This document shows, piece by piece, positions 19,923 through 56,084 of a stretch of DNA of 64,000 nt (its first letter is position 1; every line of letters begins with the position of its first letter). This stretch comes from a virus (lineage: Duplodnaviria > Caudoviricetes). Made by a program: the position numbers and the translations under genes. The notes under the pieces are model-generated. The model was not told where the DNA came from, made no database searches, and saw only the letters and a list, made by a program, of their open reading frames with translations. Location: positions 26,497-90,496 of IMG/VR virus record IMGVR_UViG_3300043753_000023. One strand, 5' to 3'.

Positions 19923-21500
19923 ATGGCGCGCCGCTCCGCATTCACCGTCCTCGCCGACCAGTTGGAAGACTCCACCGCCAACCAGGCCCGCGCTGCGGAC
20001 TACGCTGCCGACCCGGCACTGTGGGCCCGGGAGAAGCTCGGCGAACACTTCTGGTCCAAGCAGGTCGAGATCGCCGACTCGGTCCGCGACAACCGACTGA
20101 CTGCCGTGCAGAGTTGCCACGGCGTAGGGAAGTCCTGGACCGCGTCGCGTCTCACCGCCTGGTGGCTGGACATCCACCCGCCCGGCGAAGCCCGCGTCGT
20201 TACCACCGCCCCCACCGGCGACCAGGTCAAGGCGATCCTCTGGTCTGAGATCAACGCCGCCTTCGCAACAGCGGCAGCCCGCGGCAACCCGCTTCCGGGC
20301 CGGATCAACGAGACGGACTGGAAGCTCGGCAAGCGGCTGATCGCCTTCGGCCGCAAGCCCAGCGACTACAATCCGCACGCCTTCCAAGGCATCCACGCCA
20401 GGTACGTCCTTGTAGTGCTCGACGAGGCCTGCGGCATCAACAAGCAGTTCTGGGTGGCCGCCCAAGCGATCGCCACCGGCGAGCACTGCCGGATTCTCGC
20501 CATCGGCAACCCCGACGACCCTGGATCCCAGTTCGCCAAGGTCTGCGCGAACGACCGCTGGAACACCATCCGGATCTCCGCGTTCGACACGCCGAACTTC
20601 ACAGGCGAGCCGGTTCCCGATGACCTCAAACCGATGCTCGTCTCGCACGCCTACGAGCACGACATGCGCACCGAGTTCGGCGAGCATGCCCCCACCTACA
20701 TCTCCAAGGTGCTCGGCCAGTTCCCCCACGACGCCGACGACGGCGTGGTACGACTCTCCGCCGTCCGCGCCTGCGCGCTACCTCCCTCCACGCCACTGCT
20801 CTATACCGACCTGACGCCAGTGCAGTTGGGCGTCGACCTAGGCGCCGGCGGCGACGAAACCGTCATCCGGGAACGCCGCGGCATGCGGGTCGGCCGCGAA
20901 TGGCGCAGCCGCGAGAAGGACCCGACCAAGGTTGTCGATGTGATCGTCGCGGCGATCCGCGACTCCAAGGCCACTGTGGTGAAGGTCGACTCCATCGGCA
21001 TCGGCTGGGGCATCGTCGGCACGCTGCGGGAACGCCGCGCGAAGGGCGAGCACGACGCCGACATCATCGGCGTCAACGTGAGCGAAGCCAGCACCGAGCC
21101 CGAGAAGTTCGGCCGCCTACGCTCCCAAATCTGGTGGCAAGTTGGCCGGCAACTCTCCGAAGACCGCGGCTGGGACCTGTCCGAGCTTGACGAGGACGAC
21201 CGGGAACGCCTGGTGTCCCAACTGACCGCCCCCAAGTACTCGCTGGACGCTGCCGGGCGGATCGTCGTCGAGCCCAAGCCCGAGACGAAGAAGCGCATCG
21301 GCCGCAGCCCCGACAATGCCGACGCCCTGCTCCTCGCGTTTTACGCGGGCTCCGGGTCTGACGCACACGCCTGGATCAACCACTTGCAGCGCAAGGTCGG
21401 TGCCGACGCCGACACGGCACCCGAGGCAACATCCGCTTCGCCGGCCCCCGCCGATGCCCTGGCCGCAGCCCGGCACAACGCCTACCGACAGCAGCGCTAA
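19923..21500 (+). CDS. Terminase large subunit
   Basis: SCHGVGKS Walker A, VVLDEA Walker B, GVDLGAGGD, DNADALLL nuclease motifs. Confidence 0.93.
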   Translation: MARRSAFTVLADQLEDSTANQARAADYAADPALWAREKLGEHFWSKQVEIADSVRDNRLTAVQSCHGVGKSWTASRLTAWWLDIHPPGEARVVTTAPTGDQVKAILWSEINAAFATAAARGNPLPGRINETDWKLGKRLIAFGRKPSDYNPHAFQGIHARYVLVVLDEACGINKQFWVAAQAIATGEHCRILAIGNPDDPGSQFAKVCANDRWNTIRISAFDTPNFTGEPVPDDLKPMLVSHAYEHDMRTEFGEHAPTYISKVLGQFPHDADDGVVRLSAVRACALPPSTPLLYTDLTPVQLGVDLGAGGDETVIRERRGMRVGREWRSREKDPTKVVDVIVAAIRDSKATVVKVDSIGIGWGIVGTLRERRAKGEHDADIIGVNVSEASTEPEKFGRLRSQIWWQVGRQLSEDRGWDLSELDEDDRERLVSQLTAPKYSLDAAGRIVVEPKPETKKRIGRSPDNADALLLAFYAGSGSDAHAWINHLQRKVGADADTAPEATSASPAPADALAAARHNAYRQQR

Positions 21501-21519
21501 ACGACGGGGGGCTGCCGGG

Positions 21520-23790
21520 ATGGTCGACCCCCGCCGCATTGCCAAAACCTACGGGGAGCCCGCCCCCATGGCGGCCGGCGAAGCGGCCGCGCGGATGACG
21601 CCGACGTCGCCCTTCTCGCCCGGCGCGCCGATCAACCCGTACGACGGCTACTCGCGGACCCCGCGAGTGCAGGAGTACGTGCCCGGTTACAACATCTCGG
21701 CGAGGCCCCGCTCCCATGAGCGGGTGTCGTTCGAGACGCTGCGTGGGCTGGTCAACTCCTACGACGTTGCGCAGATGTGCATCTGGCATCGGATCGACTC
21801 GATCCGGTCGTTGGACTGGTCGCTCGTCGCGGCCCCGCACTTCGACGGGGACGTCACCGATGCAGTCCGGGTCGGCATGGCGGTGCTGTCCAAGCCGGAT
21901 GGTCGGACGCCATTCAGCACGTGGCTGTCGTCGTACCTGTACGACATCCTCGCCTATGATGCCGGCGCGCTCTACCGGCTGCGGAATCGTCGCGGAGATG
22001 CGATCGGGCTGCTGAACGTGGACGGCACCACCATCGCGCCGCTCCTCGACTACTGGGGCCGTCCTCCCGCCGCGGCCGCACCCGGGGAACCCGAGCCGGA
22101 AGCCTTCGTCCAGTACATCAACGGCCTGAGCTGGAACTGGTTGACCCTCAGCGACCTGATCTACCAGCCGTTTCGGAAGAAGAATGACTCCCCGTACGGG
22201 CTGTCTCCGCTTGAGACCATCCTGCTCAATGCCAACACCGACATTCGGTTTCAGGTCTACTTCCTGCAGCGATTCACCGAGGGCAACATCCCGGAGGCCT
22301 TCGCGTCAGCCCCCGAGTCGTGGTCACCCGACCAGATCGAGCAGTGGCAAGGCCTCTGGGACTCGTTCATGTCCGGCGACCAGGCCCAGAAGCACACCAT
22401 CAAGTGGCTTCCCAGCGGGTCGACGATCGCATGGTCGAACGAGAAGGACTTCACAGACGCGTTCTCGCTGTTCTTGATGCGCAAGACCGCCGCGGCCTAT
22501 CACGTGGTACCGAGTGACTTGGGGTTCACCGAGACCGTCAACCTGTCCTCCTCCGAGAGCCAGGCCGACGTGCAGCACCGCGTCGGCGACCTGCCGCTGA
22601 TCCGGCACGTCCAAGGGGTTCTGACCCGCTTTCTGCAGGACGATCTCGGGTTGCCGCTCGAGTTCCTCTGGGACCTGGGCGAAGAGCAGGCCGACCGCCT
22701 CCAGCAGGCTCAGGCTGACCTGATCTATATGAACTCGGGCGTGATCGGGGCCAGCGACATCCGCGAGATGCGCTACGGCCTGGCCGAGCCGGCAGGCGTG
22801 CCCGTGCCGCGGTTCATCTTCACCGAGCGATCCGGTCCGATCCCGCTCGCCAGCCTGTACGCGCTGGCCGGTCAAATCGACTCGGCCTCCGCGGCCCCGC
22901 TGCCGGGCGCCCAGTTGCCGCACGCCGCGTTCACCGCGGCCGAGGGTGTCGTCCCGAACCCGCCCGTCCTGACCGCACCCCTTGCCGAGCAGGAGTACGG
23001 GCCGTCCGCGATCCCGCCCACACCGCAACCCCCGGCCCCCGAGGCCCCGGTCGGCAAGGACGCCGGGGCGCTGACGGCCGGGATCACGACCGCGACTGGG
23101 ATCACCGGGTATGACCTCGTTGGCCGGCGCGAGGACGACGAGGGTGACGAGCCAGAGGCGGACCAGCAGCGGTTGGCCAAAACTGAGCTTGCGGCGTTCC
23201 GAAAGTTCGCCAAAGCCCGCCGCCGCGCCGGACGTTGGCGGGACTTCGAGTTCCGGCATGCCGACCCCGTTGACGCCCGACGGTTCAACCAGGGCGGCCA
23301 GCTCGCGGTCCGCAAGGACGCCGGACAGATTGCGGTTGCCGGGCTTGCCGTGATGGCAGCCGACACCGGCCGCGTCCTCATGCTGCAGCGATGCCTCGGC
23401 CCTGAGGATCCTGCTGGCGGAACCTTCGAATTCCCCGGCGGTCACCTCGAGGATGATGAGACACCGCTGATGGGCGCCTGGCGGGAGTGGGCAGAGGAGA
23501 CCGGATGCGTCCCGCCGCCTGGCGTGCAGACCGGCACGTGGACGAGTCCGGACGGCATCTATCAGGGCATCGTCTGGACTGTCGACTCCGAGGCCTTCGT
23601 GCCCGTACGCGGCGATCGGGAGATTTCCAACCCAGATGACCCGGACGGCGACCAGGTCGAAGCGATCGCCTGGTGGGACCCGGCGCAGCTCGACGACAAC
23701 CCGGCAGTACGTCCCGAACTGCTCGCGTCGCTACCCAACGTCCTTGTCGCTCTCGGCCGTGCGCCCGACGACGAGACCCCCAACGCATAG
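21520..23790 (+). CDS. Portal protein with C-terminal Nudix hydrolase domain
   Basis: Portal motifs (YDAGALYRLR, SPYGLSPLE, AYHVVPSDLGF); Nudix box GHLEDDETPLMGAWREWAEETG. Confidence 0.88.
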   Translation: MVDPRRIAKTYGEPAPMAAGEAAARMTPTSPFSPGAPINPYDGYSRTPRVQEYVPGYNISARPRSHERVSFETLRGLVNSYDVAQMCIWHRIDSIRSLDWSLVAAPHFDGDVTDAVRVGMAVLSKPDGRTPFSTWLSSYLYDILAYDAGALYRLRNRRGDAIGLLNVDGTTIAPLLDYWGRPPAAAAPGEPEPEAFVQYINGLSWNWLTLSDLIYQPFRKKNDSPYGLSPLETILLNANTDIRFQVYFLQRFTEGNIPEAFASAPESWSPDQIEQWQGLWDSFMSGDQAQKHTIKWLPSGSTIAWSNEKDFTDAFSLFLMRKTAAAYHVVPSDLGFTETVNLSSSESQADVQHRVGDLPLIRHVQGVLTRFLQDDLGLPLEFLWDLGEEQADRLQQAQADLIYMNSGVIGASDIREMRYGLAEPAGVPVPRFIFTERSGPIPLASLYALAGQIDSASAAPLPGAQLPHAAFTAAEGVVPNPPVLTAPLAEQEYGPSAIPPTPQPPAPEAPVGKDAGALTAGITTATGITGYDLVGRREDDEGDEPEADQQRLAKTELAAFRKFAKARRRAGRWRDFEFRHADPVDARRFNQGGQLAVRKDAGQIAVAGLAVMAADTGRVLMLQRCLGPEDPAGGTFEFPGGHLEDDETPLMGAWREWAEETGCVPPPGVQTGTWTSPDGIYQGIVWTVDSEAFVPVRGDREISNPDDPDGDQVEAIAWWDPAQLDDNPAVRPELLASLPNVLVALGRAPDDETPNA

Positions 23791-41030: not shown

Positions 41031-42488
41031 TTGACTGCGATCACGTATGGCGTCACCCTGTCCGACCTCATCGGCTGGATCAACGTGCAGGCGCCGGGCT
41101 ACGGCGCCAAGGGGGATGGCGTCACCGACGACACTGCGGCGCTGCAGGCTGCGCTGACTGCCGCCGCGAGCTCGCCCGGCGGCACCGTCTACCTGCCGGC
41201 CGGGACCTACCTTGTCAGCAGCCCGCTGACCGTGGCTGGCGGCGTCACCATGCGCGGCGACAGTCAGGCGCAGGTCACCCTGAAGATCGCAGCGACGTTC
41301 TCTGGCGCCCAGGTCATCAACGTCACGGGGACCGCAGGCACCGTGCAGGGGATCACCATCACCGGGATCTCCACGACCTACAGCTCGAACCCCGCCGCCG
41401 ACGCCATCCGCGTCTCCAATGCGATGCGGTGCACCGTCAAGGACGTGTACATCGCGTACGTCAACGGCTGGGGCGTTGCCGCCCTGGCATCCGGCACCGG
41501 AAGCTGCCTGTGGACGGTCCTGGACAACGTGCACGTCTACCAGGGCGCCCAGGGCATCCACCTGCTCGGCGTGACCGGTTCCGGCTTCAATGCGGGCTCC
41601 TACCTCACGAACTGCAACGCGGAGCAGATCGCCGGCGGCGACGGGTACCTGCTGGAGGACGTACACGACGTCACCATGGCGAACTCGGAGGGATGGAATC
41701 TCTCCACCTCGACCGGCAATACCCTGCACATCAAGGGGAATTCGGCTGCAATCTACGCATCCAACTTCTCGCTGGGCGGCCTGACCGGCTCAACCCCGCA
41801 GGCCCATGCGGTAGTCCTTGTCGAGTCTGGCGCGAACGGGACGCCCAACGGTGTGGTTCTGACCGGTGGCATTGTCGAGGCTGGCACTCCAGGCCTGTCG
41901 GTCACTGCCGGAACGCGGATCGTCTGCCAGGGTGTGCAGTTCTTCTCGAACGCGAACTACGGTGCAGTGGTGTCCGGTTCGGCCACTCCCGACGTCCTCT
42001 TCAGCTCGTGCACGTTCAACGGCAATGGCTACACGGCGGGTGCCGGCGACTTCGACCTGGTGTGTTCGACCACCAATGGCTACGTCGATGTGAACCACAG
42101 CGAGTTCCTTACGCCGTCGGGCACTGGGGCCCAGCAGGTCGCCTCGGCCGTCAATGCCAACGGTCAGTTGTACATGACTGCGAACAGGTTTGCGGGTGCG
42201 GGCGCAGTCGGCGGTGGCGGTGGTGGATACCCGAAGGCCGCCCACCTCAACGTGGGCTACAACCCCCTTGGCCCGCTGGGTGCACCGACCGTCCCGGCCT
42301 CCGGGACGCCCATGACGAGCCCGTACGGGGTTGACTGCACCGTCCACATCTCCGGCGGCACAGTGAGCGCCATCGCCGTCGGCGGAACGGTCACCGGGCT
42401 GACGTCCGGCACTTTCCGCCTCCCAGTGGGTCAGGCCATCACCCTGACGTACACCGCGGCGCCGACCTGGGTCTGGCTCGGCGACTGA
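41031..42488 (+). CDS. Tail spike, pectate-lyase-3/GH28-like beta-helix
   Basis: [20 protein letters not shown]...TVYLPAGTY followed by beta-helix repeats. Confidence 0.88.
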
Positions 42489-42515
42489 CCGCCACCGCCA
42501 ACCTTTCCTGCCCTC

Positions 42516-42554
42516 AAGCCCCGCCAACGTGCGGGGCTTTCGTATGCCCGGAGG
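42516..42554 (+). terminator. Hairpin-TTTCGTATGCCC-RBS element upstream of the PLD gene
   Basis: AAGCCCCGC/GCGGGGCTT stem then GGAGG. Confidence 0.7.
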
Positions 42555-42558
42555 CACT

Positions 42559-43095
42559 ATGCCGCTGCCCGACCTCGCGGTTCTGGACCGCTTCAAGACC
42601 GGCGGCTTCCCCGCCGACTATCCGACCTGGACGCGGACTTGGTACTCGCCGGTCGACGACGTTCACGGGGCTCTGCGAGCCCTGGTCGCCTCGGCGACGA
42701 GCAGCCTGGTGGTCGCCATGTACGGCTTCGACGACGACGAGCTTGCGGACCTCATCAAGCAGAAGCTTGCGGATCCGAGCATCGTCGTCCAACTCACTCT
42801 CGACTCCAGCCAGGCCGGCGGCGTGCACGAGCGGGAGATCCTCGCCGAGGAGGCCTACCCGGCTTCGTCGGTGGCGATTGGCCGGTCAGAGCGGGGCCAG
42901 ATCATGCACCTCAAGGAGGTCGTGGTCGACGGCCTCGACGTCATCACCGGCAGCACCAACTGGTCGAACAGCGGCGAGAGTCTGCAGGACAACGCCATGA
43001 TACTGATCCGGGATCGGGTGGTCGCCGCAGAGGCGCGCACCCGGATCGATGCGATTCACCACCACATGCTCGGCACCGCTCGGAAGGCGGCGTGA
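42559..43095 (+). CDS. Single-HKD phospholipase D / Nuc-family protein
   Basis: [10 protein letters not shown]...TGSTNWS...QDN; SLVVAMYGF. Confidence 0.85.
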
Positions 43096-43897: not shown

Positions 43898-44112
43898 ACG
43901 CGCTCCTCGCTGCTGGGTCCGCCAGCGACGGCCCGTGGGTGTGGCTCGGCGGCGCGGTCTCCGCGTCCATCCTGCTCGCGGCCGTCGTGAAGGTCGGCCG
44001 CTGGATCAGCACGGTCGAAGCCCGAATCGACCGACACGACGCGGCCCTTCGCCGGATCGGCAAGGCCCTCGCCGATGACCCCGACGACCGGACGCCGGAA
44101 GGGAGTTCATGA
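43894..44112 (+). CDS. Single-TM plus coiled-coil protein (lysis accessory)
   Basis: GTGA and ATGA coupling to the endolysin. Confidence 0.65.
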   Translation: MNALLAAGSASDGPWVWLGGAVSASILLAAVVKVGRWISTVEARIDRHDAALRRIGKALADDPDDRTPEGSS

Positions 44113-45008
44113 TGGGGATCTATGGCCAGGACTGGGCAAGTTACCAGTCGGCGCAGCCCGACGTGTCGGGCCTGTCGTTCGCCTTCGTGAAGATCACCGA
44201 AGGCTTGTCGTACATCAACCCGCTGTGGAAGCGGCAGCGCGACCACGCCAAGGCCAACGGCCTCGTGTGGGGCGCCTACCACTACCCGAACATGCACAAC
44301 TCGGACCGCGCCGAGGCGGACTTCTTCCTCGCCCAGAACCAGTGGCAGCCCGGCGACTTGGTCGTCCTCGACTGGGAGGGCTACGACGCAGCGAACGCCA
44401 CGGTCAGCGCCGCAGACCAGCTCGCATACAAGGAGGGCTACCTCCAGTACGTGAAAAGCCGGCTGCCGCACAACCCCGTGGGCCTGTACTGCAACACGGA
44501 CTACTGGAACCGGGTCGACACGACCGGGCACCGCGGCGACTTCCTGTGGATCGCCACCGCCGGCCGAGCCGCGGGCGATCCGGGGATCGCGGCGCAGTGG
44601 CTTTTCCACCAGTACTCGGACGCGGGTGTCGACCGCGACTTCAGCCCCTTCGCATCCACCGCGGCACTCCGCACTTGGGCGTTGGGCTTCGCCACCCCCA
44701 TCCCGGCTCAACCTCAGGAGACTGACATGCTCGACGACGCAACCATCGCCCTGTGGAACGGGATGATCTGGGGCCTCAAGAACACCACCGAGACGACTCA
44801 GCGGCAGATTAGCCAGCTGCAGCAGCAGATGGCCGCACAGCAGGCGACCATCACCACCCTTGCGGGGCTGCTGTCCGCGCAGCACCCGGGCGTGGACACC
44901 GCGCAGGTGGTGGCGGCGGTGGATGACGCGATCGCGAAGGCCACGGTGCACGTGACCGTGACGGACTCCGTGCCGCCGCCGGCCGCCGCCGTGAAGCCGG
45001 CCGGGTGA
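44109..45008 (+). CDS. Endolysin, GH25 muramidase
   Basis: YGQDWASYQ, FVKITEG, GAYHY, VLDWEG, GLYCN, LWIA, FHQYS. Confidence 0.92.
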   Translation: MMGIYGQDWASYQSAQPDVSGLSFAFVKITEGLSYINPLWKRQRDHAKANGLVWGAYHYPNMHNSDRAEADFFLAQNQWQPGDLVVLDWEGYDAANATVSAADQLAYKEGYLQYVKSRLPHNPVGLYCNTDYWNRVDTTGHRGDFLWIATAGRAAGDPGIAAQWLFHQYSDAGVDRDFSPFASTAALRTWALGFATPIPAQPQETDMLDDATIALWNGMIWGLKNTTETTQRQISQLQQQMAAQQATITTLAGLLSAQHPGVDTAQVVAAVDDAIAKATVHVTVTDSVPPPAAAVKPAG

Positions 45009-50037: not shown

Positions 50038-51222
50038 ATGCCCTACACCGGGCCGGAACACACCGGCATGCGCATCGCCAAGCACCGCAAGCTGAGGCGC
50101 CTTACCCAGCAGGCCCTCGCCGAGCGAGCAGGCATCTCGGCAAGCCTCCTAACCAAGATCGAACGCGGTGAGCGCCCCGCCACCCCCGCAGTTCTCGGAG
50201 CCATCTCCAGGGCCTTGCACGTCCCAGTGGCGGATCTGCTCGGGCAGCCCTACCTGACCGAGCTGCAGGCGGACCAGCTGGACGCCCTGATCGACCCGAT
50301 CCGCACCTCGCTGGAGCTGTACGACCTGGGCGCGGATCCGATGCTTGCACCGCGCCCGCTGGAGCAACTGACGGCGAAGGCCGACGAGTTGTGCGCCGCA
50401 ATGCGCCGAGCGTCCGTGAAGGCAGTGGCGGCGGAGCTGCCAACGGCACTCGCTGAAGCAACCGCAGCAGCGCAGGCAACGCCCAGCACCGAAGCGTGGA
50501 TGGTCCTCGCCAGCCTGTATCGGACGGCGTTCGATACGGCCGACAAGCTCGGCTTCATCGACCTGTCGCAGGTGGCGCTGGACCGGATGGCCTGGGCCGC
50601 TGGGCGGGCGAGCGACCCGACGGTCGAGGCGGTCCGGCAGTACCTGCGCTCACTCAGCTGCCTGCGGTCGGGGCGCCTCGCAGTGGGCGGCCGGATCCTC
50701 GCCGCCGGCCTGGACCTGCTGGAGCAGGCCGAGCCCGGACGGGTGCGCGACGTCGTCACCGGACAGCTGCACCTTGGTGCGGCGATGGTGGCCGCGCGCT
50801 CGGAAGACGAGGACGGGACGGCCTACCACTTGGCTGTCTCGGAACGAATCGCCGCCGCGACGGGGCCCGCGGAGAAGGTGCACTGGCTGAGCTACGGGCC
50901 TGCGAACGTCGCTGTTCACCAGGTCGCAGCGCTGGCCGAGTTGCGCAAGTACGACGAGGCCGTGGATGCGGCGAGGCACGTGGCGATTCCGGATAACTGG
51001 CCGGCCACACGCAGGGCGCATCACCTGGCCGAGGTGGCCCGGGCACAGCTCTGGCTGGACAGGCCAGATGCGGCACTGCGGAACCTGCAGCAAGCCCGGG
51101 CGGCGGCCCCCCAGATGATGCGCTATCACCCGATGATGCGGGAGACCGTCTCGGGCCTGGTGGCCGCGCGGCGGGCGACGACGAACTCGCTGGCGAATCT
51201 CGCTACGTGGGCTGGGATCTGA
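50038..51222 (+). CDS. XRE HTH regulator with long helical (TPR-like) C-terminal domain
   Basis: RKLRRLTQQALAERAGISASLLTKIERGER then helical repeats. Confidence 0.88.
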   Translation: MPYTGPEHTGMRIAKHRKLRRLTQQALAERAGISASLLTKIERGERPATPAVLGAISRALHVPVADLLGQPYLTELQADQLDALIDPIRTSLELYDLGADPMLAPRPLEQLTAKADELCAAMRRASVKAVAAELPTALAEATAAAQATPSTEAWMVLASLYRTAFDTADKLGFIDLSQVALDRMAWAAGRASDPTVEAVRQYLRSLSCLRSGRLAVGGRILAAGLDLLEQAEPGRVRDVVTGQLHLGAAMVAARSEDEDGTAYHLAVSERIAAATGPAEKVHWLSYGPANVAVHQVAALAELRKYDEAVDAARHVAIPDNWPATRRAHHLAEVARAQLWLDRPDAALRNLQQARAAAPQMMRYHPMMRETVSGLVAARRATTNSLANLATWAGI

Positions 51223-52231: not shown

Positions 52232-52471
52232 CTACGTCCAGAACAGGTAGATCGTCTGGGTACCCAGCGCCCGCGCGAGCGCCACCAGGTCGTCGAGGGT
52301 CGGCGCGGTCAGGCCCAACTCCCAGCTTCCGATGGTCCGTCGGTCGACGCCAGCCTGTTCAGCAAGCGTCTCCTGGCTCCATCCGTGGGCCCGGCGTAGT
52401 TGTCGAATGCGGGCACCGACCTCTCGGCGGGTCTTCAGCTGCAGGTGGTCGGGCGTACGGGAGGGCGGCAC
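52232..52471 (-). CDS. Small XRE HTH regulator
   Basis: GARIRQLRRAHGWSQETLAEQAGVDRRTIGSWE. Confidence 0.88.
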   Translation of the reverse strand: MPPSRTPDHLQLKTRREVGARIRQLRRAHGWSQETLAEQAGVDRRTIGSWELGLTAPTLDDLVALARALGTQTIYLFWT

Positions 52472-52587
52472 TCCTTGACCGTTGCGCGATCAAGATCAAA
52501 TGTCTGTACGTGCACCCCGTCAAGGTCTCGTTAAAACGTTCGATAACATGCCCGTCGAACGCCAGCACCAGACCGGAGCGCCACCCT

Positions 52588-52788
52588 GTGACCGAGAACT
52601 GCCCTCATATCGCCGCCCAACAAGCCGCCGCCCTACTACGCGAAGCCCTCGCGCAACACGACATCACCCTGCCGGACCTCGGCGTCGACCTCAGCAGCAT
52701 CATCGCCGGCTATTCAGCCGTGCGCCTTGGCAGCGCATCCGCGGCCACCGTCCGCAAAATCGCGGCCCTGCTGAATCGTCCCAACTAG
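52588..52788 (+). CDS. Conserved small streptomycete hypothetical protein
   Basis: LREALAQHDITLPDLGVD...VRLGSAS pattern; divergent from the XRE gene. Confidence 0.65.
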   Translation: MTENCPHIAAQQAAALLREALAQHDITLPDLGVDLSSIIAGYSAVRLGSASAATVRKIAALLNRPN

Positions 52789-53711
52789 GGACCGTCGGCC
52801 TTCCAGGCGACCCCCAGGGCGAAGAGGGTCTTCACGCCGTAATGCTCCTTCAGCCCCGCGATGACCTCGGCGACAGCCCGCTCCCCAATGTCGAGCTTCT
52901 TCGCAATGGCCGGCTGACTGGCACCGGCCTCCAGGGCCTTAAGTACGCGAATTTCACGACGAGTCAGCGGTCCTGACGGCTCGGGTCGAGTCCACGGCTC
53001 AGCTCGATTCCAATCCCGCTCAAACTGGCCCGCCAGAAAGGCGGCCACTCCCGGGTCATGCACCATGTACGCATCCGTGCGACTGCTAGTGGTGAGGATG
53101 TCATTGCCCGGAATGACGGCCACCTTGCGGTCGATCACAAAGAACCTCGGGAACCCCTCATCCAAGGTTCGGAACTCCGCGCCAGCGTCCTGCATCTTCT
53201 TCACCCACTTGCCCATGTTCTCCCCGGAGCGCGCCTCCTCCCGATACAGGGTTCGCGTCCTCACGCCGCGCCGCAGGGCTCCGAGGTCCCGATCGTTTGT
53301 CTCCTCCAGGATCTCCGGCTTGCGAACCCCGCCGGGCTGACAGAACAGCAATTCACTGCTCGCGGCGCCCATGACCTGGGACAGGCGCGCGTTGATGGCG
53401 TCGCTGCCTTGCAGATACTCGATGAGCCCTTCCCTGCCAGGTCGGTTGTCGTAGGCCTGGGCCAGCGGTCGCAGAGCGTCGGCTATAGCCGTGACACCGT
53501 TGAGCAGATCGGCCCGCCAGCGGGCGCTGACGTAGCTCGGATCGACCGGCACGGGACCGTCAGCGCCGTCGCGAAGGAGCCCGAGGTTCAGAAGCCGGCC
53601 GAGGGCTTCGGGTGAAACGTCATCGACCGGTTCGCCAGCCAGGACGCGCCCGTACGCTTCCGCCGACTCGTTGCTGATGGTGGCCCAGGATGGGGCTGCA
53701 GGGGATGTCAT
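52785..53711 (-). CDS. TrmB-like sensor plus C-terminal LuxR HTH regulator
   Basis: RGVRTRTLY...FPRFFVIDRKVAV; LTRREIRVLKALEAG...IAKKLDIGERAV. Confidence 0.85.
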   Translation of the reverse strand: MTSPAAPSWATISNESAEAYGRVLAGEPVDDVSPEALGRLLNLGLLRDGADGPVPVDPSYVSARWRADLLNGVTAIADALRPLAQAYDNRPGREGLIEYLQGSDAINARLSQVMGAASSELLFCQPGGVRKPEILEETNDRDLGALRRGVRTRTLYREEARSGENMGKWVKKMQDAGAEFRTLDEGFPRFFVIDRKVAVIPGNDILTTSSRTDAYMVHDPGVAAFLAGQFERDWNRAEPWTRPEPSGPLTRREIRVLKALEAGASQPAIAKKLDIGERAVAEVIAGLKEHYGVKTLFALGVAWKADGP

Positions 53712-53961
53712 GGGTGCAGGATATTGCGGGCGCAGGTTCTCGCGCTGCAGATCACTGGACTCCGGCCGCACGCTGGGCGATCGTTGAGTCACTCGTTGAA
53801 CAATCACCAACAAGTGACCTCTCTTCACGGGCTCGCAATGGGGGGAACCATGCCAAGCCACGCACCCGCCGATCAGCGGGTTGACAAGACATCAAGGATC
53901 ACTTGTCCTGGGGACACCACAACCGCGGCAAGAGGCCGCGGCCAGACCCCCAAGGGACCAC

Positions 53962-54126
53962 ATGTCCAAGTCCAAGATGGGAGCAGCGCTGCTCTCCTGC
54001 ACTGCCGCCATAGCCGCGATCCTGCTTGCCGCCAGTCCCAGCACCGCCAGTACCGGATCCACGCCGTCATCGGTCACCAGCATCAGCCCCTCCGCGAGTC
54101 CGCTCGACAGCAACTGGGGCGGCTGA
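53962..54126 (+). CDS. 54-aa secreted peptide ending DSNWGG
   Basis: AAGGGA RBS; basic N-terminus, hydrophobic core, Ser/Thr/Pro spacer, polar W-containing tail. Confidence 0.7.
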   Translation: MSKSKMGAALLSCTAAIAAILLAASPSTASTGSTPSSVTSISPSASPLDSNWGG

Positions 54127-54473: not shown

Positions 54474-54509
54474 CCTTAGGGATACTGCCCAACAGCAGTA
54501 TCCCTAAGG
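54474..54509. terminator. 15-bp perfect inverted repeat (bidirectional terminator and/or att-related)
   Basis: CCTTAGGGATACTGC-N6-GCAGTATCCCTAAGG overlapping the integrase stop. Confidence 0.65.
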
Positions 54510-56084
54510 AACGCTATCCGCGCCGTCCTCCAATGGGGCACCCGCTCCCTCTTCGTCCATCCAGACCGGGACGATTTCCAGCCCTCCCTCTGGGAAGATG
54601 TAGACCGCCCGAATGAGCTTCCTGAGCAGGGAGTTGGCGCGGGCGGGAGGGATCGTATCCCACTCCGCGTGCAGGTCCGCTGCCGCTGCCATCGCCTCAG
54701 CGATAAGATCGTCCTGTGCCGCTTCGCGCTCGACGACCGTCTCCAGGTCTCCCACCCGACCCGAAAGCGCCACCTTCTCCGCTCGAAGGTTCGCCAGGGT
54801 TTGCAGGTACTCCTTTTCCAGCGCCCCGTCCGGGTCATCGTCCTCAGCCATGGCGTATGCCCGCATGTGCTTGCCGATCGCCCGCTCAATCCGGCTGACC
54901 TGCTCCTGAAGCTCAGCAAGGCTTTCCCGGGGCACGGTCACCGGCTGAGTCGGCACAGGAAGGTGCCGAGCATCCTCGCCAATCTCCCCAGCAACCTTCC
55001 CCAGCCAGTCGCAGATGCTGGCCTCGACCAGGCTCGACAGCCTGGACGTTCCCCGGCAAGCAATCGGCCCGTGTCGCCGACGTGCACCACAGAGGATCGA
55101 CTGTTTGCTGCCGCTTCGCACGGCCGATCCGCCGCACAGGCCGCATCGAGTCAGGCCTGTCATCGGATAGACCGCACCACGTAGGCGAGGCGCCAGGGAT
55201 CCAACCGACCGACGCTGGCGCAGGTAGGCCTCCCACTCTTCGGGCGTGACGATCGCCGGGTGCTGACCCGGGATGAGGTTGTGATTCGGGCAGGCGGTAG
55301 AGTAGGGCTGATCTGTACATTTCGGGTCGTGAACTCGGAGGAATCCGGCGGCAAATCCTGAATCTAGGTAGCGCTGCAGGGTCCTAGGCCCCCAGAGGGC
55401 GCCGCGCGTGGTGCACTGCCCGTTCATATTGAGCCATGCGGATAGCACCGGAAAGCCGGTCCCACCGGCATATCGCCGATATAGGGAAGCAACGATGTCC
55501 TTAACGTCGTCGTCAAGCTCGTATCGCTCTTCCTGCACGGTGACCTGGCCGTTGGGGGCATATGTCTTCCGGGGATACCAGGTGTACCCGTAGCGCGGCC
55601 TCCCGGCAGAGGGTAGGCCCTGCGTACGACGGTGGTCGTGGGTTTCCCTCCACTGCTCGCCGGCACGCTCACTTTCGAGGGCATTGAGCTCCATAATCAC
55701 GCCGCGCTGGAATCGACCAAAGGAGGTCCGCGTGTCTACTTCCTCCGTGGCGGAGAGAAGTTGACCGCCAACCCCCTCAACCCTTGCCAGGTTGGCCGTC
55801 ACCCCGACGCGCGTGCGGCCGAATCGCGAAAACTTCCAGACGGCGATGACCCTCGCCTCGCCCGCTTCAACGCGCTCGATCGCCCTCATGATCTTGCGTT
55901 TAAAGTTGCGGCCGGTTTTGTCGAGGTCTTCGACCCAGTCAATGATGCGATGTCCTGTTCGAGTCGCCCATTGCTGAATTGCTCCGCGCTGCAGCTCCGG
56001 TGAGATCATCTCTTCGCGAGCCGTGCTCACCCGGATGTATCCAATCGCCGGGATAAGCTCGTCGGATGCCTCTTGCGCCGGCAT
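54504..56084 (-). CDS. Large serine recombinase (integrase)
   Basis: AIGYIRVST catalytic motif, WKFSRFGR, recombinase domain, CGLCG Zn ribbon, coiled coil. Confidence 0.96.
   Translation of the reverse strand: MPAQEASDELIPAIGYIRVSTAREEMISPELQRGAIQQWATRTGHRIIDWVEDLDKTGRNFKRKIMRAIERVEAGEARVIAVWKFSRFGRTRVGVTANLARVEGVGGQLLSATEEVDTRTSFGRFQRGVIMELNALESERAGEQWRETHDHRRTQGLPSAGRPRYGYTWYPRKTYAPNGQVTVQEERYELDDDVKDIVASLYRRYAGGTGFPVLSAWLNMNGQCTTRGALWGPRTLQRYLDSGFAAGFLRVHDPKCTDQPYSTACPNHNLIPGQHPAIVTPEEWEAYLRQRRSVGSLAPRLRGAVYPMTGLTRCGLCGGSAVRSGSKQSILCGARRRHGPIACRGTSRLSSLVEASICDWLGKVAGEIGEDARHLPVPTQPVTVPRESLAELQEQVSRIERAIGKHMRAYAMAEDDDPDGALEKEYLQTLANLRAEKVALSGRVGDLETVVEREAAQDDLIAEAMAAAADLHAEWDTIPPARANSLLRKLIRAVYIFPEGGLEIVPVWMDEEGAGAPLEDGADSVP

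Follow-up and report, generated by a model that had tools for sequence, protein, structure and literature searches.

A phage-borne peptide-precursor gene divergent from a TrmBL2/LuxR-like regulator: a candidate peptide signal and receptor in Actinomycetota

In the arbitrium system, the AimP hexapeptide is paired with the AimR receptor (PMC6458997), while RRNPP systems are units of a pro-peptide and an intracellular receptor that are carried by mobile elements and in which the mature peptide is C-terminal (PMC10075063). Actinobacterial signals are typically small molecules made by enzymes (PMC10075063), and gamma-butyrolactone systems of the AfsA/ArpA type are the established means of cell-cell signalling in Streptomyces (PMC10075063, PMC4748050). 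Here we analysed a 64,000-nucleotide stretch (the window) of the 90.5-kb viral record IMGVR_UViG_3300043753_000023, in which a gene for a 54-amino-acid (aa) precursor with a predicted signal peptide lies head-to-head with the gene for a 308-aa regulator. To our knowledge, peptide quorum sensing with intracellular receptors and peptide communication by phages have been described only in Bacillota and only with tetratricopeptide repeat (TPR) receptors. We propose, with a probability of roughly 0.45, that the pair belongs to a new actinobacterial family of peptide signals and receptors and is carried here by a phage, the signal being sensed by the adjacent regulator. By analogy, the functionally closest systems are arbitrium and RRNPP, to which the pair does not appear to be homologous; membership of either fails because the regulator lacks a TPR domain and the phylum is a different one. 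The two genes and their main parts are as follows.

53962..54126, + strand: pre-pro-peptide gene, 54 aa (open reading frame (ORF); GC content at third codon positions 0.80; homologues of the small ORF predicted at related loci by independent gene callers)
53962..54051, + strand: predicted Sec signal peptide, residues 1-30 (basic n-region and hydrophobic core; presumed cleavage after T-A-S)
54106..54123, + strand: C-terminal motif D-S-N-W-G-G, with the stop codon (54124-54126) directly after it
52785..53711, - strand: regulator, 308 aa, with a putative winged helix-turn-helix (HTH)-like N-terminus, a phospholipase D (PLD)-like domain and a LuxR/GerE HTH (Pfam; AlphaFold2 model; Foldseek; profile against the PDB)

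The N-terminus of the 54-aa ORF reads as a basic n-region (M-S-K-S-K) and a hydrophobic core of 18-19 residues, from which a Ser/Thr/Pro-rich spacer leads to the C-terminal D-S-N-W-G-G. GC content by codon position (0.45/0.73/0.80) is consistent with a coding frame rich in Ser, Thr, Ala and Pro, and a Shine-Dalgarno (SD)-like AAGGGA is found 4 nt 5´ of the ATG. The signal-peptide call is based on this sequence together with relatives whose precursors, in the alignment, have canonical A-x-A signal-peptidase sites followed by Asp. A scan of the window for the motif and signal peptide returned the 54-aa ORF as its sole match, in agreement with a preliminary description of this locus that had noted the Sec-type layout, the spacer and the DSNWGG end. 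When chance matches were counted, the criteria being an N-terminus of the signal type and a D..W at the C-terminus followed by at most two residues, 408 kb of reversed sequence gave a single match, and a scan for D..W precursors in 400 kb of one Kitasatospora genome distant from regulator genes gave none. Pfam, NCBIfam, PHROGs and PADLOC held no family for the peptide or for the peptide/regulator pair, and the relatives returned by a profile search with the peptide were all named "hypothetical protein".

Two other readings of the small ORF were rejected. An 81-aa form from an upstream TTG start (53881) was set aside because in the peptide promoter this TTG belongs to the conserved -35 hexamer, and a lipoprotein reading via Cys13 because the Cys is not conserved and relatives carry signal peptidase I sites.

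For the regulator, Pfam assigned Regulator_TrmB (PF11495) to residues 97-242 (E 5e-6, above the cut-off), a match that spans just positions 2-137 of the 233 in the profile, and GerE (PF00196) to residues 248-280 (E 1.6e-5, 24.8 bits against a cut-off of 23.5). The AlphaFold2 model has a mean predicted local distance difference test score of 83.6. Its best Foldseek match is the archaeal TrmBL2 structure 5bpd (E 7e-13), followed by PLD-fold proteins such as the nuclease Nuc (1byr), and 2f5t and 3qph were also matched. In a comparison of the family profile with the PDB, TrmBL2 was aligned over positions 27-248 (5box residues 42-262, E 5e-6), and the last 60 residues matched NarL, GerE and DosR chains (E 2e-7 to 4e-6). 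None of the listed Foldseek matches is a TPR protein, and the Pfam domains of the regulator are of the TrmB type and GerE only. The architecture given in the preliminary description, a TrmB/PLD-like core with a LuxR HTH and no TPR domain, was therefore supported by Pfam, the fold model and the profile matches alike.

Like TrmB and TrmBL2, the regulator has a long helix and a non-catalytic PLD-like domain, and its N-terminus may likewise be winged HTH-like; it differs in carrying a LuxR/GerE HTH where TrmB has a C-terminal sugar-binding barrel. TrmBL2 is a chromatin protein with no known ligand, and neither TrmB nor TrmBL2 is known to be tied to peptides. The C-terminal GerE/LuxR HTH is shared with LuxR-type receptors and LuxR solos, whereas the N-terminal part of the regulator is TrmBL2/PLD-like; Pfam found no autoinducer-binding domain in it, and the PDB matches to RhlR, SdiA and CviR span the HTH only. 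At the N-terminus there is no match to PF01978, a domain present in some clusters of the regulator family; the model shows a helix-helix-hairpin at residues 34-75, and the TrmBL2 profile alignment begins at residue 42. We placed the start at ATG 53711, which is residue 21 of a 328-aa form and aligns with the Met of 89% of 146 family members, and rejected in its favour both that 328-aa form (GTG 53771, chosen by the database gene caller) and one of 358 aa. Conservation in the 146 family members is strongest within the PLD-like domain, at positions that include five Arg together with Tyr, Trp, Glu and Asp. Near-invariant residues are E140, Q145, P146, R150, R173, Y176, R181, R201, T202, R209, D214, F250 and W254 (328-aa numbering). 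This conserved site could plausibly accommodate the Asp, the Trp and the free carboxylate of a peptide.

The pairing of the two genes was followed in a set of loci made up of the contigs of 16 regulator homologues, mostly from Kitasatospora, further genomic and viral loci, and the isolated Streptomyces phage Chymera, with scans made from a nine-sequence alignment. In the prophage clade that includes the window regulator (n=12, Shimodaira-Hasegawa-like approximate likelihood ratio test (SH-aLRT) support 99), all 12 members have a divergent small ORF upstream of the regulator, with a signal peptide, a Pro/Thr/Ser/Ala spacer and a D-[ST]-x-W-G-[GN] end. The Asp, the Trp and the Gly that follows are invariant in these 12 precursors, and conservation in the alignment is confined to the signal peptide and the final 5-10 residues, the spacer varying in both length and sequence. 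Chymera, a laboratory strain like its host Streptomyces venezuelae, was the one isolated phage that matched. Its gp29 is a regulator 28% identical to that of the window and divergent from gp30, which has D-P-G-W-G twice, right after the signal peptide and at the C-terminus; both are annotated as hypothetical proteins. A second tblastn search, with gp29 as the query, found no more isolated phages.

A variant was seen in a 44-aa precursor (P0172, in the P0009 locus) that ends D-T-C-W-G-C, with two Cys in the motif, and is directly followed on the same strand by a gene for a 392-aa protein.

The pairing is shared by dozens of Kitasatospora and Streptomyces loci. In a wider scan of all loci, for which the last motif residue was relaxed, 38 distinct precursors were collected, and the motif, the signal peptide and the SD were conserved over these 38 loci at regulator identities of 28-53%, with an SD-like motif 5´ of 31 of the precursors. 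More than half (20/38) hold two to six near-identical copies of their own C-terminal D-x-x-W unit, compared to 0.3 expected after shuffling; a Kitasatospora precursor (L021) holds six. The units are alike within a precursor, whereas the two middle positions and the residues after the Trp differ between precursors. The ORF always ends in a copy of the unit, and the spacers between units are not conserved. This repetition strongly suggests that a short processed peptide is the active product.

A profile search over 1.84 billion proteins was sampled by rank only, with representatives taken at ranks of about 24, 74 and 124, and all three have a divergent two-copy precursor with a D-x-x-W-x end. 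The divergent peptide neighbour, a check set beforehand in the preliminary description, was thus present in these three as well as in Chymera and the whole prophage clade. The regulator family numbers 951 clusters in a profile search at E 1e-30, with look-alike clusters nearly all from Actinomycetota and database names that are "hypothetical" or generic throughout. On Kitasatospora chromosomes (L074 at G001:C1:204000-220000, L021, L013, L011 and L018), up to seven paralogous regulator genes lie in tandem, accompanied by one multi-copy precursor of up to six D-Y-[IV]-W-T units; these arrays are found directly downstream of dnaK-grpE-dnaJ-hspR. We are highly confident that this family of gene pairs is real.

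Upstream of a distant solitary regulator paralogue (L064, G001:C29, 2564-3265, - strand), we also noted a 94-aa secreted ORF that ends T-W-G-W-G and is possibly related, in diverged form, to the D-x-x-W precursors.

Compared with arbitrium (AimP-AimR-AimX of Bacillus SPbeta-like phages), the window has the same kind of phage-borne small ORF, with a predicted export signal at one end and a short conserved peptide at the other, an adjoining cytoplasmic transcription factor, a location in the lysogeny region, and peptide variants between phages. It differs in the receptor, which here would be a TrmBL2/PLD-like core with a LuxR HTH and not a TPR protein, in the Actinomycetota host, in having divergent genes rather than an operon, and in having no identified counterpart of AimX. 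With the RRNPP systems (Rap/Phr, NprR, PlcR/PapR, PrgX, Rgg/SHP and RapI-PhrI of ICEBs1) it shares the two-gene layout and the adjacent pro-peptide ORF, but it is without a TPR domain, lies outside Bacillota and belongs with many multi-copy precursors. SHP peptides resemble the candidate unit in starting with Asp and, as in the phage clade, ending with Gly-Gly, a resemblance only. Gamma-butyrolactone systems combine an enzyme-made small molecule with a TetR-type receptor, whereas the candidate signal here is gene-encoded and no synthase is present. Judged by their sequences, the two genes are built from parts non-homologous to known systems of peptides and intracellular receptors, and we found no family, name or paper for the pair; the full-text literature search that yielded no description of it was incomplete in coverage, and earlier work is possible.

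The regulator and peptide genes diverge head-to-head, as the preliminary description had it, with 250 bp between their starts. This region contains the following candidate promoters and operators.

53881..53909, + strand: candidate peptide promoter, TTGACA, 17 nt, TGTCCT (equivalent element in related loci)
53883..53907, no strand: inverted repeat with 11-nt arms and a 3-nt spacer inside the peptide promoter, a possible operator
53788..53818, no strand: GTCACTYGTTG-N9-complement, a palindrome covering the -35 region of the regulator promoter (inverted-repeat search)
53712..53787, - strand: -10-like CAACGAT (53780-53786) of the regulator promoter and 5´ leader with conserved GCA-rich tandem repeats (alignment blocks)

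TTGACA with a 17-18 nt spacer and TGTCCT or TGTGCT was found at the equivalent place in three related loci (L004, L039 and L051), and a fourth (L002) has TTGACA alone. The regulator promoter element, TTGTTGRTG ... CAACGATC, is overlapped by the palindrome at 53788-53818. No further copies of this palindrome were found in the window besides its own two half-sites, and the exact palindrome was not found in the other loci; related, non-identical ACTTGTTGA/TCAACAAGT palindromes were recognized by eye in L053, L051 and L004.

The window also encodes a terminase, a portal protein, a tape-measure protein, minor tail proteins and a glycoside hydrolase family 25 (GH25) endolysin, and to the right of the pair are a large serine integrase, CI/Cro-like HTH genes and recombination/exonuclease genes. 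With phage genes on both sides, the pair therefore sits within phage DNA, adjoining the integrase. The nearest neighbours are as follows.

54504..56084, - strand: large serine integrase (Resolvase, Recombinase and Zn_ribbon_recom domains)
52510..52788, + strand: small conserved ORF facing the regulator gene convergently, of uncertain start and conserved over 52603-52788 (tblastn)
52232..52471, - strand: 79-aa XRE/Cro-type HTH protein (XRE-79), fourth member of the cassette (Pfam HTH_3, E 4e-17)

The peptide stop codon is 377 bp from the integrase, close to the ~380 bp first estimated, and the integrase adjoins the cassette in L004 and the P0009 locus as it does in the window. In the integrated relatives L002 and L006, the peptide gene is the final prophage gene before host genes. 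The small convergent ORF overlaps the regulator stop by 4 nt and is 44-59% identical by tblastn in more than 10 related cassettes, where it is called as a gene; no family was assigned to it by Pfam, NCBIfam, PHROGs or PADLOC. The XRE-79 gene, downstream of the regulator and in the same orientation, is kept in most cassettes, including that of Chymera (gp28). Run on the cassette, PADLOC matched XRE-79 alone, with generic HTH models, and neither the peptide nor the regulator nor the small ORF. The nearby integrase and the Cro-like gene that travels with the pair make it plausible that the pair is linked to the control of lysogeny; that it gates lysis and lysogeny we consider unlikely.

A second regulator, of 385 aa, is encoded 2.7 kb from the peptide gene (50065-51222, + strand). 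It has an XRE HTH by Pfam and an end-to-end match to phrog_5823, and residues 222-369 give a weak TPR-like match to the NsdA family (E 1e-5, below the family cut-off). Its size and architecture are those of RRNPP/AimR receptors, and it is present in some related cassettes only.

The signal peptide, the disposable spacer, the tiny repeated C-terminal unit and the strict adjacency to a cytoplasmic transcription factor resemble in their architecture the pro-peptide/receptor pairs Phr/Rap, PapR/PlcR and AimP/AimR (PMC10075063, PMC6458997) and led us to propose a sequence of export, trimming, uptake and binding. A 54-aa precursor would be made from its own promoter and exported with loss of the signal peptide, and the Ser/Thr/Pro spacer would be trimmed extracellularly to leave a short C-terminal peptide containing D-S-N-W-G-G. 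The level of this peptide would rise with the density of phage-carrying cells. Upon import by a host oligopeptide permease, it may bind the Arg/Tyr/Trp-rich conserved site of the PLD-like domain and so alter the contact of the LuxR HTH with palindromes in the 250-bp divergent region. Both genes would thereby be subject to feedback, and the co-oriented XRE-79 gene could carry the output to the phage regulatory region beside the integrase. More broadly, it is possible, and we suggest it tentatively, that Actinomycetota have their own class of peptide signals, with exported precursors of one to six D-x-x-W-x copies and PLD-like/LuxR receptors. Temperate actinophages, the present one and Chymera among them, would have variants of their own and use these to sense the density of carrier cells in a non-homologous counterpart of arbitrium.

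Several observations weigh against sensing of the peptide by its neighbouring regulator. The loci were collected via the regulator, so that its presence in them is by construction. The preliminary description had suggested that the motif would co-vary with the sensor domain, and no regulator column in the 12 prophage-clade pairs tracked peptide positions 2 or 3 beyond random splits (the H/N split came 47th of 84; S versus T was equalled by 206/495 splits), in a test that was underpowered and is not strong evidence either way. Nor do the peptide types follow the regulator subclades, the type switching between sister regulators. Eleven more distant solitary regulator paralogues in one Kitasatospora genome are without a strict D..W precursor. 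In the window peptide, the n- and h-regions are clear, while the c-region T-A-S is acceptable and without a canonical A-x-A. As for the regulator, the sugar-binding beta-barrel at the C-terminus of TrmB is absent, the model running on into the all-helical LuxR HTH, and we know of no ligand for TrmBL2, its closest solved relative. In the main rival explanation, which we regard as somewhat unlikely, the regulator controls the divergent peptide gene without sensing the peptide. The peptide would then have another target, such as a membrane sensor, the development of neighbours or competitors, or would serve at the cell surface in lysogenic conversion or exclusion. A regulator and its target are the commonest cause of such a divergent arrangement, the palindromes overlap both promoters, and the position at the prophage end would be typical of prophage-expressed genes; the missing co-variation and the change of peptide type between sister regulators point the same way. 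This explanation, however, does not account for a charged and aromatic site in a ligand-type domain as the most conserved feature of the family, or for arrays of up to seven regulators per single precursor, and the cassettes hold no other conserved candidate receptor.

The other alternatives concern the receptor or the nature of the small ORFs. A true RRNPP-like system, with the 385-aa XRE-HTH and TPR-like regulator as the receptor and the TrmBL2/LuxR protein separate, would fit the AimR-like size of that protein, its relatives in L039 and L041 and the 392-aa gene directly after the peptide gene in the P0009 locus. We consider it decidedly improbable given that the 385-aa gene is absent within 3-4 kb of most cassettes (L002, L004, L006, L042, L051-L053) and from the chromosomal arrays, that the TrmBL2/LuxR gene is the adjacent one in every case, and that the TPR call is under the family cut-off. 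It is improbable that the small ORFs encode a non-signalling secreted or surface protein with repeats from low-complexity expansion: the spacers are indeed low-complexity Pro/Thr/Ser/Ala sequence and no family is assigned, but what is repeated is a specific unit of 5-6 residues, in exact copies with non-conserved spacers between them, and a copy always at the extreme C-terminus is not expected from such expansion. The multi-copy core motifs and the invariant Trp resemble those of some multi-core precursors of ribosomally synthesized and post-translationally modified peptides, a resemblance only, and a modified natural product of this kind, for example with Trp modification, is very improbable here, as the precursors start with signal peptides of the Sec type and not with leader peptides, no gene for a maturase, radical S-adenosylmethionine enzyme, cytochrome P450, prenyltransferase or transporter is conserved alongside, and the gene tables of related loci contain no conserved modifying enzyme near the precursors. 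Spurious ORFs are common in GC-rich genomes, and an 81-aa antisense ORF overlaps the 54-aa ORF; still, a chance open frame is extremely improbable, being contradicted by the conservation of motif, signal peptide and SD over the 38 loci and by the nulls of 1 match/408 kb and 0/400 kb. With the conserved neighbour and the regulator fold confirmed and co-variation undetected, peptide signalling through the adjacent regulator is therefore the best-supported interpretation rather than a demonstrated function. The idea of peptide communication in the preliminary description thus gained from the conserved neighbour and the regulator architecture and found no support in co-variation with the sensor domain.

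If the proposed signalling is correct, peptide signalling would have arisen independently a second time, the regulator would bring a new fold to the receptors of short peptides, and actinophages would have their first candidate communication system. The occurrence of a large family in both prophages and dnaK-adjacent chromosomal arrays gives it a possible bearing on the development of industrially important bacteria, on their production of antibiotics and on the induction of their prophages.

Three further features of the window were noted. An inverted repeat at 54474-54509, with perfect 15-bp arms 6 nt apart, overlaps the integrase stop codon between the convergent frames; it is probably a bidirectional terminator hairpin and possibly related to the attachment (att) site. 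A PLDc_2-domain protein is encoded at 42448-43095 (+ strand), ~1 kb upstream of the GH25 endolysin (44079-45008). Finally, the portal protein (21226-23790, + strand) is an apparent fusion to a C-terminal NUDIX/MutT domain at residues ~702-824.

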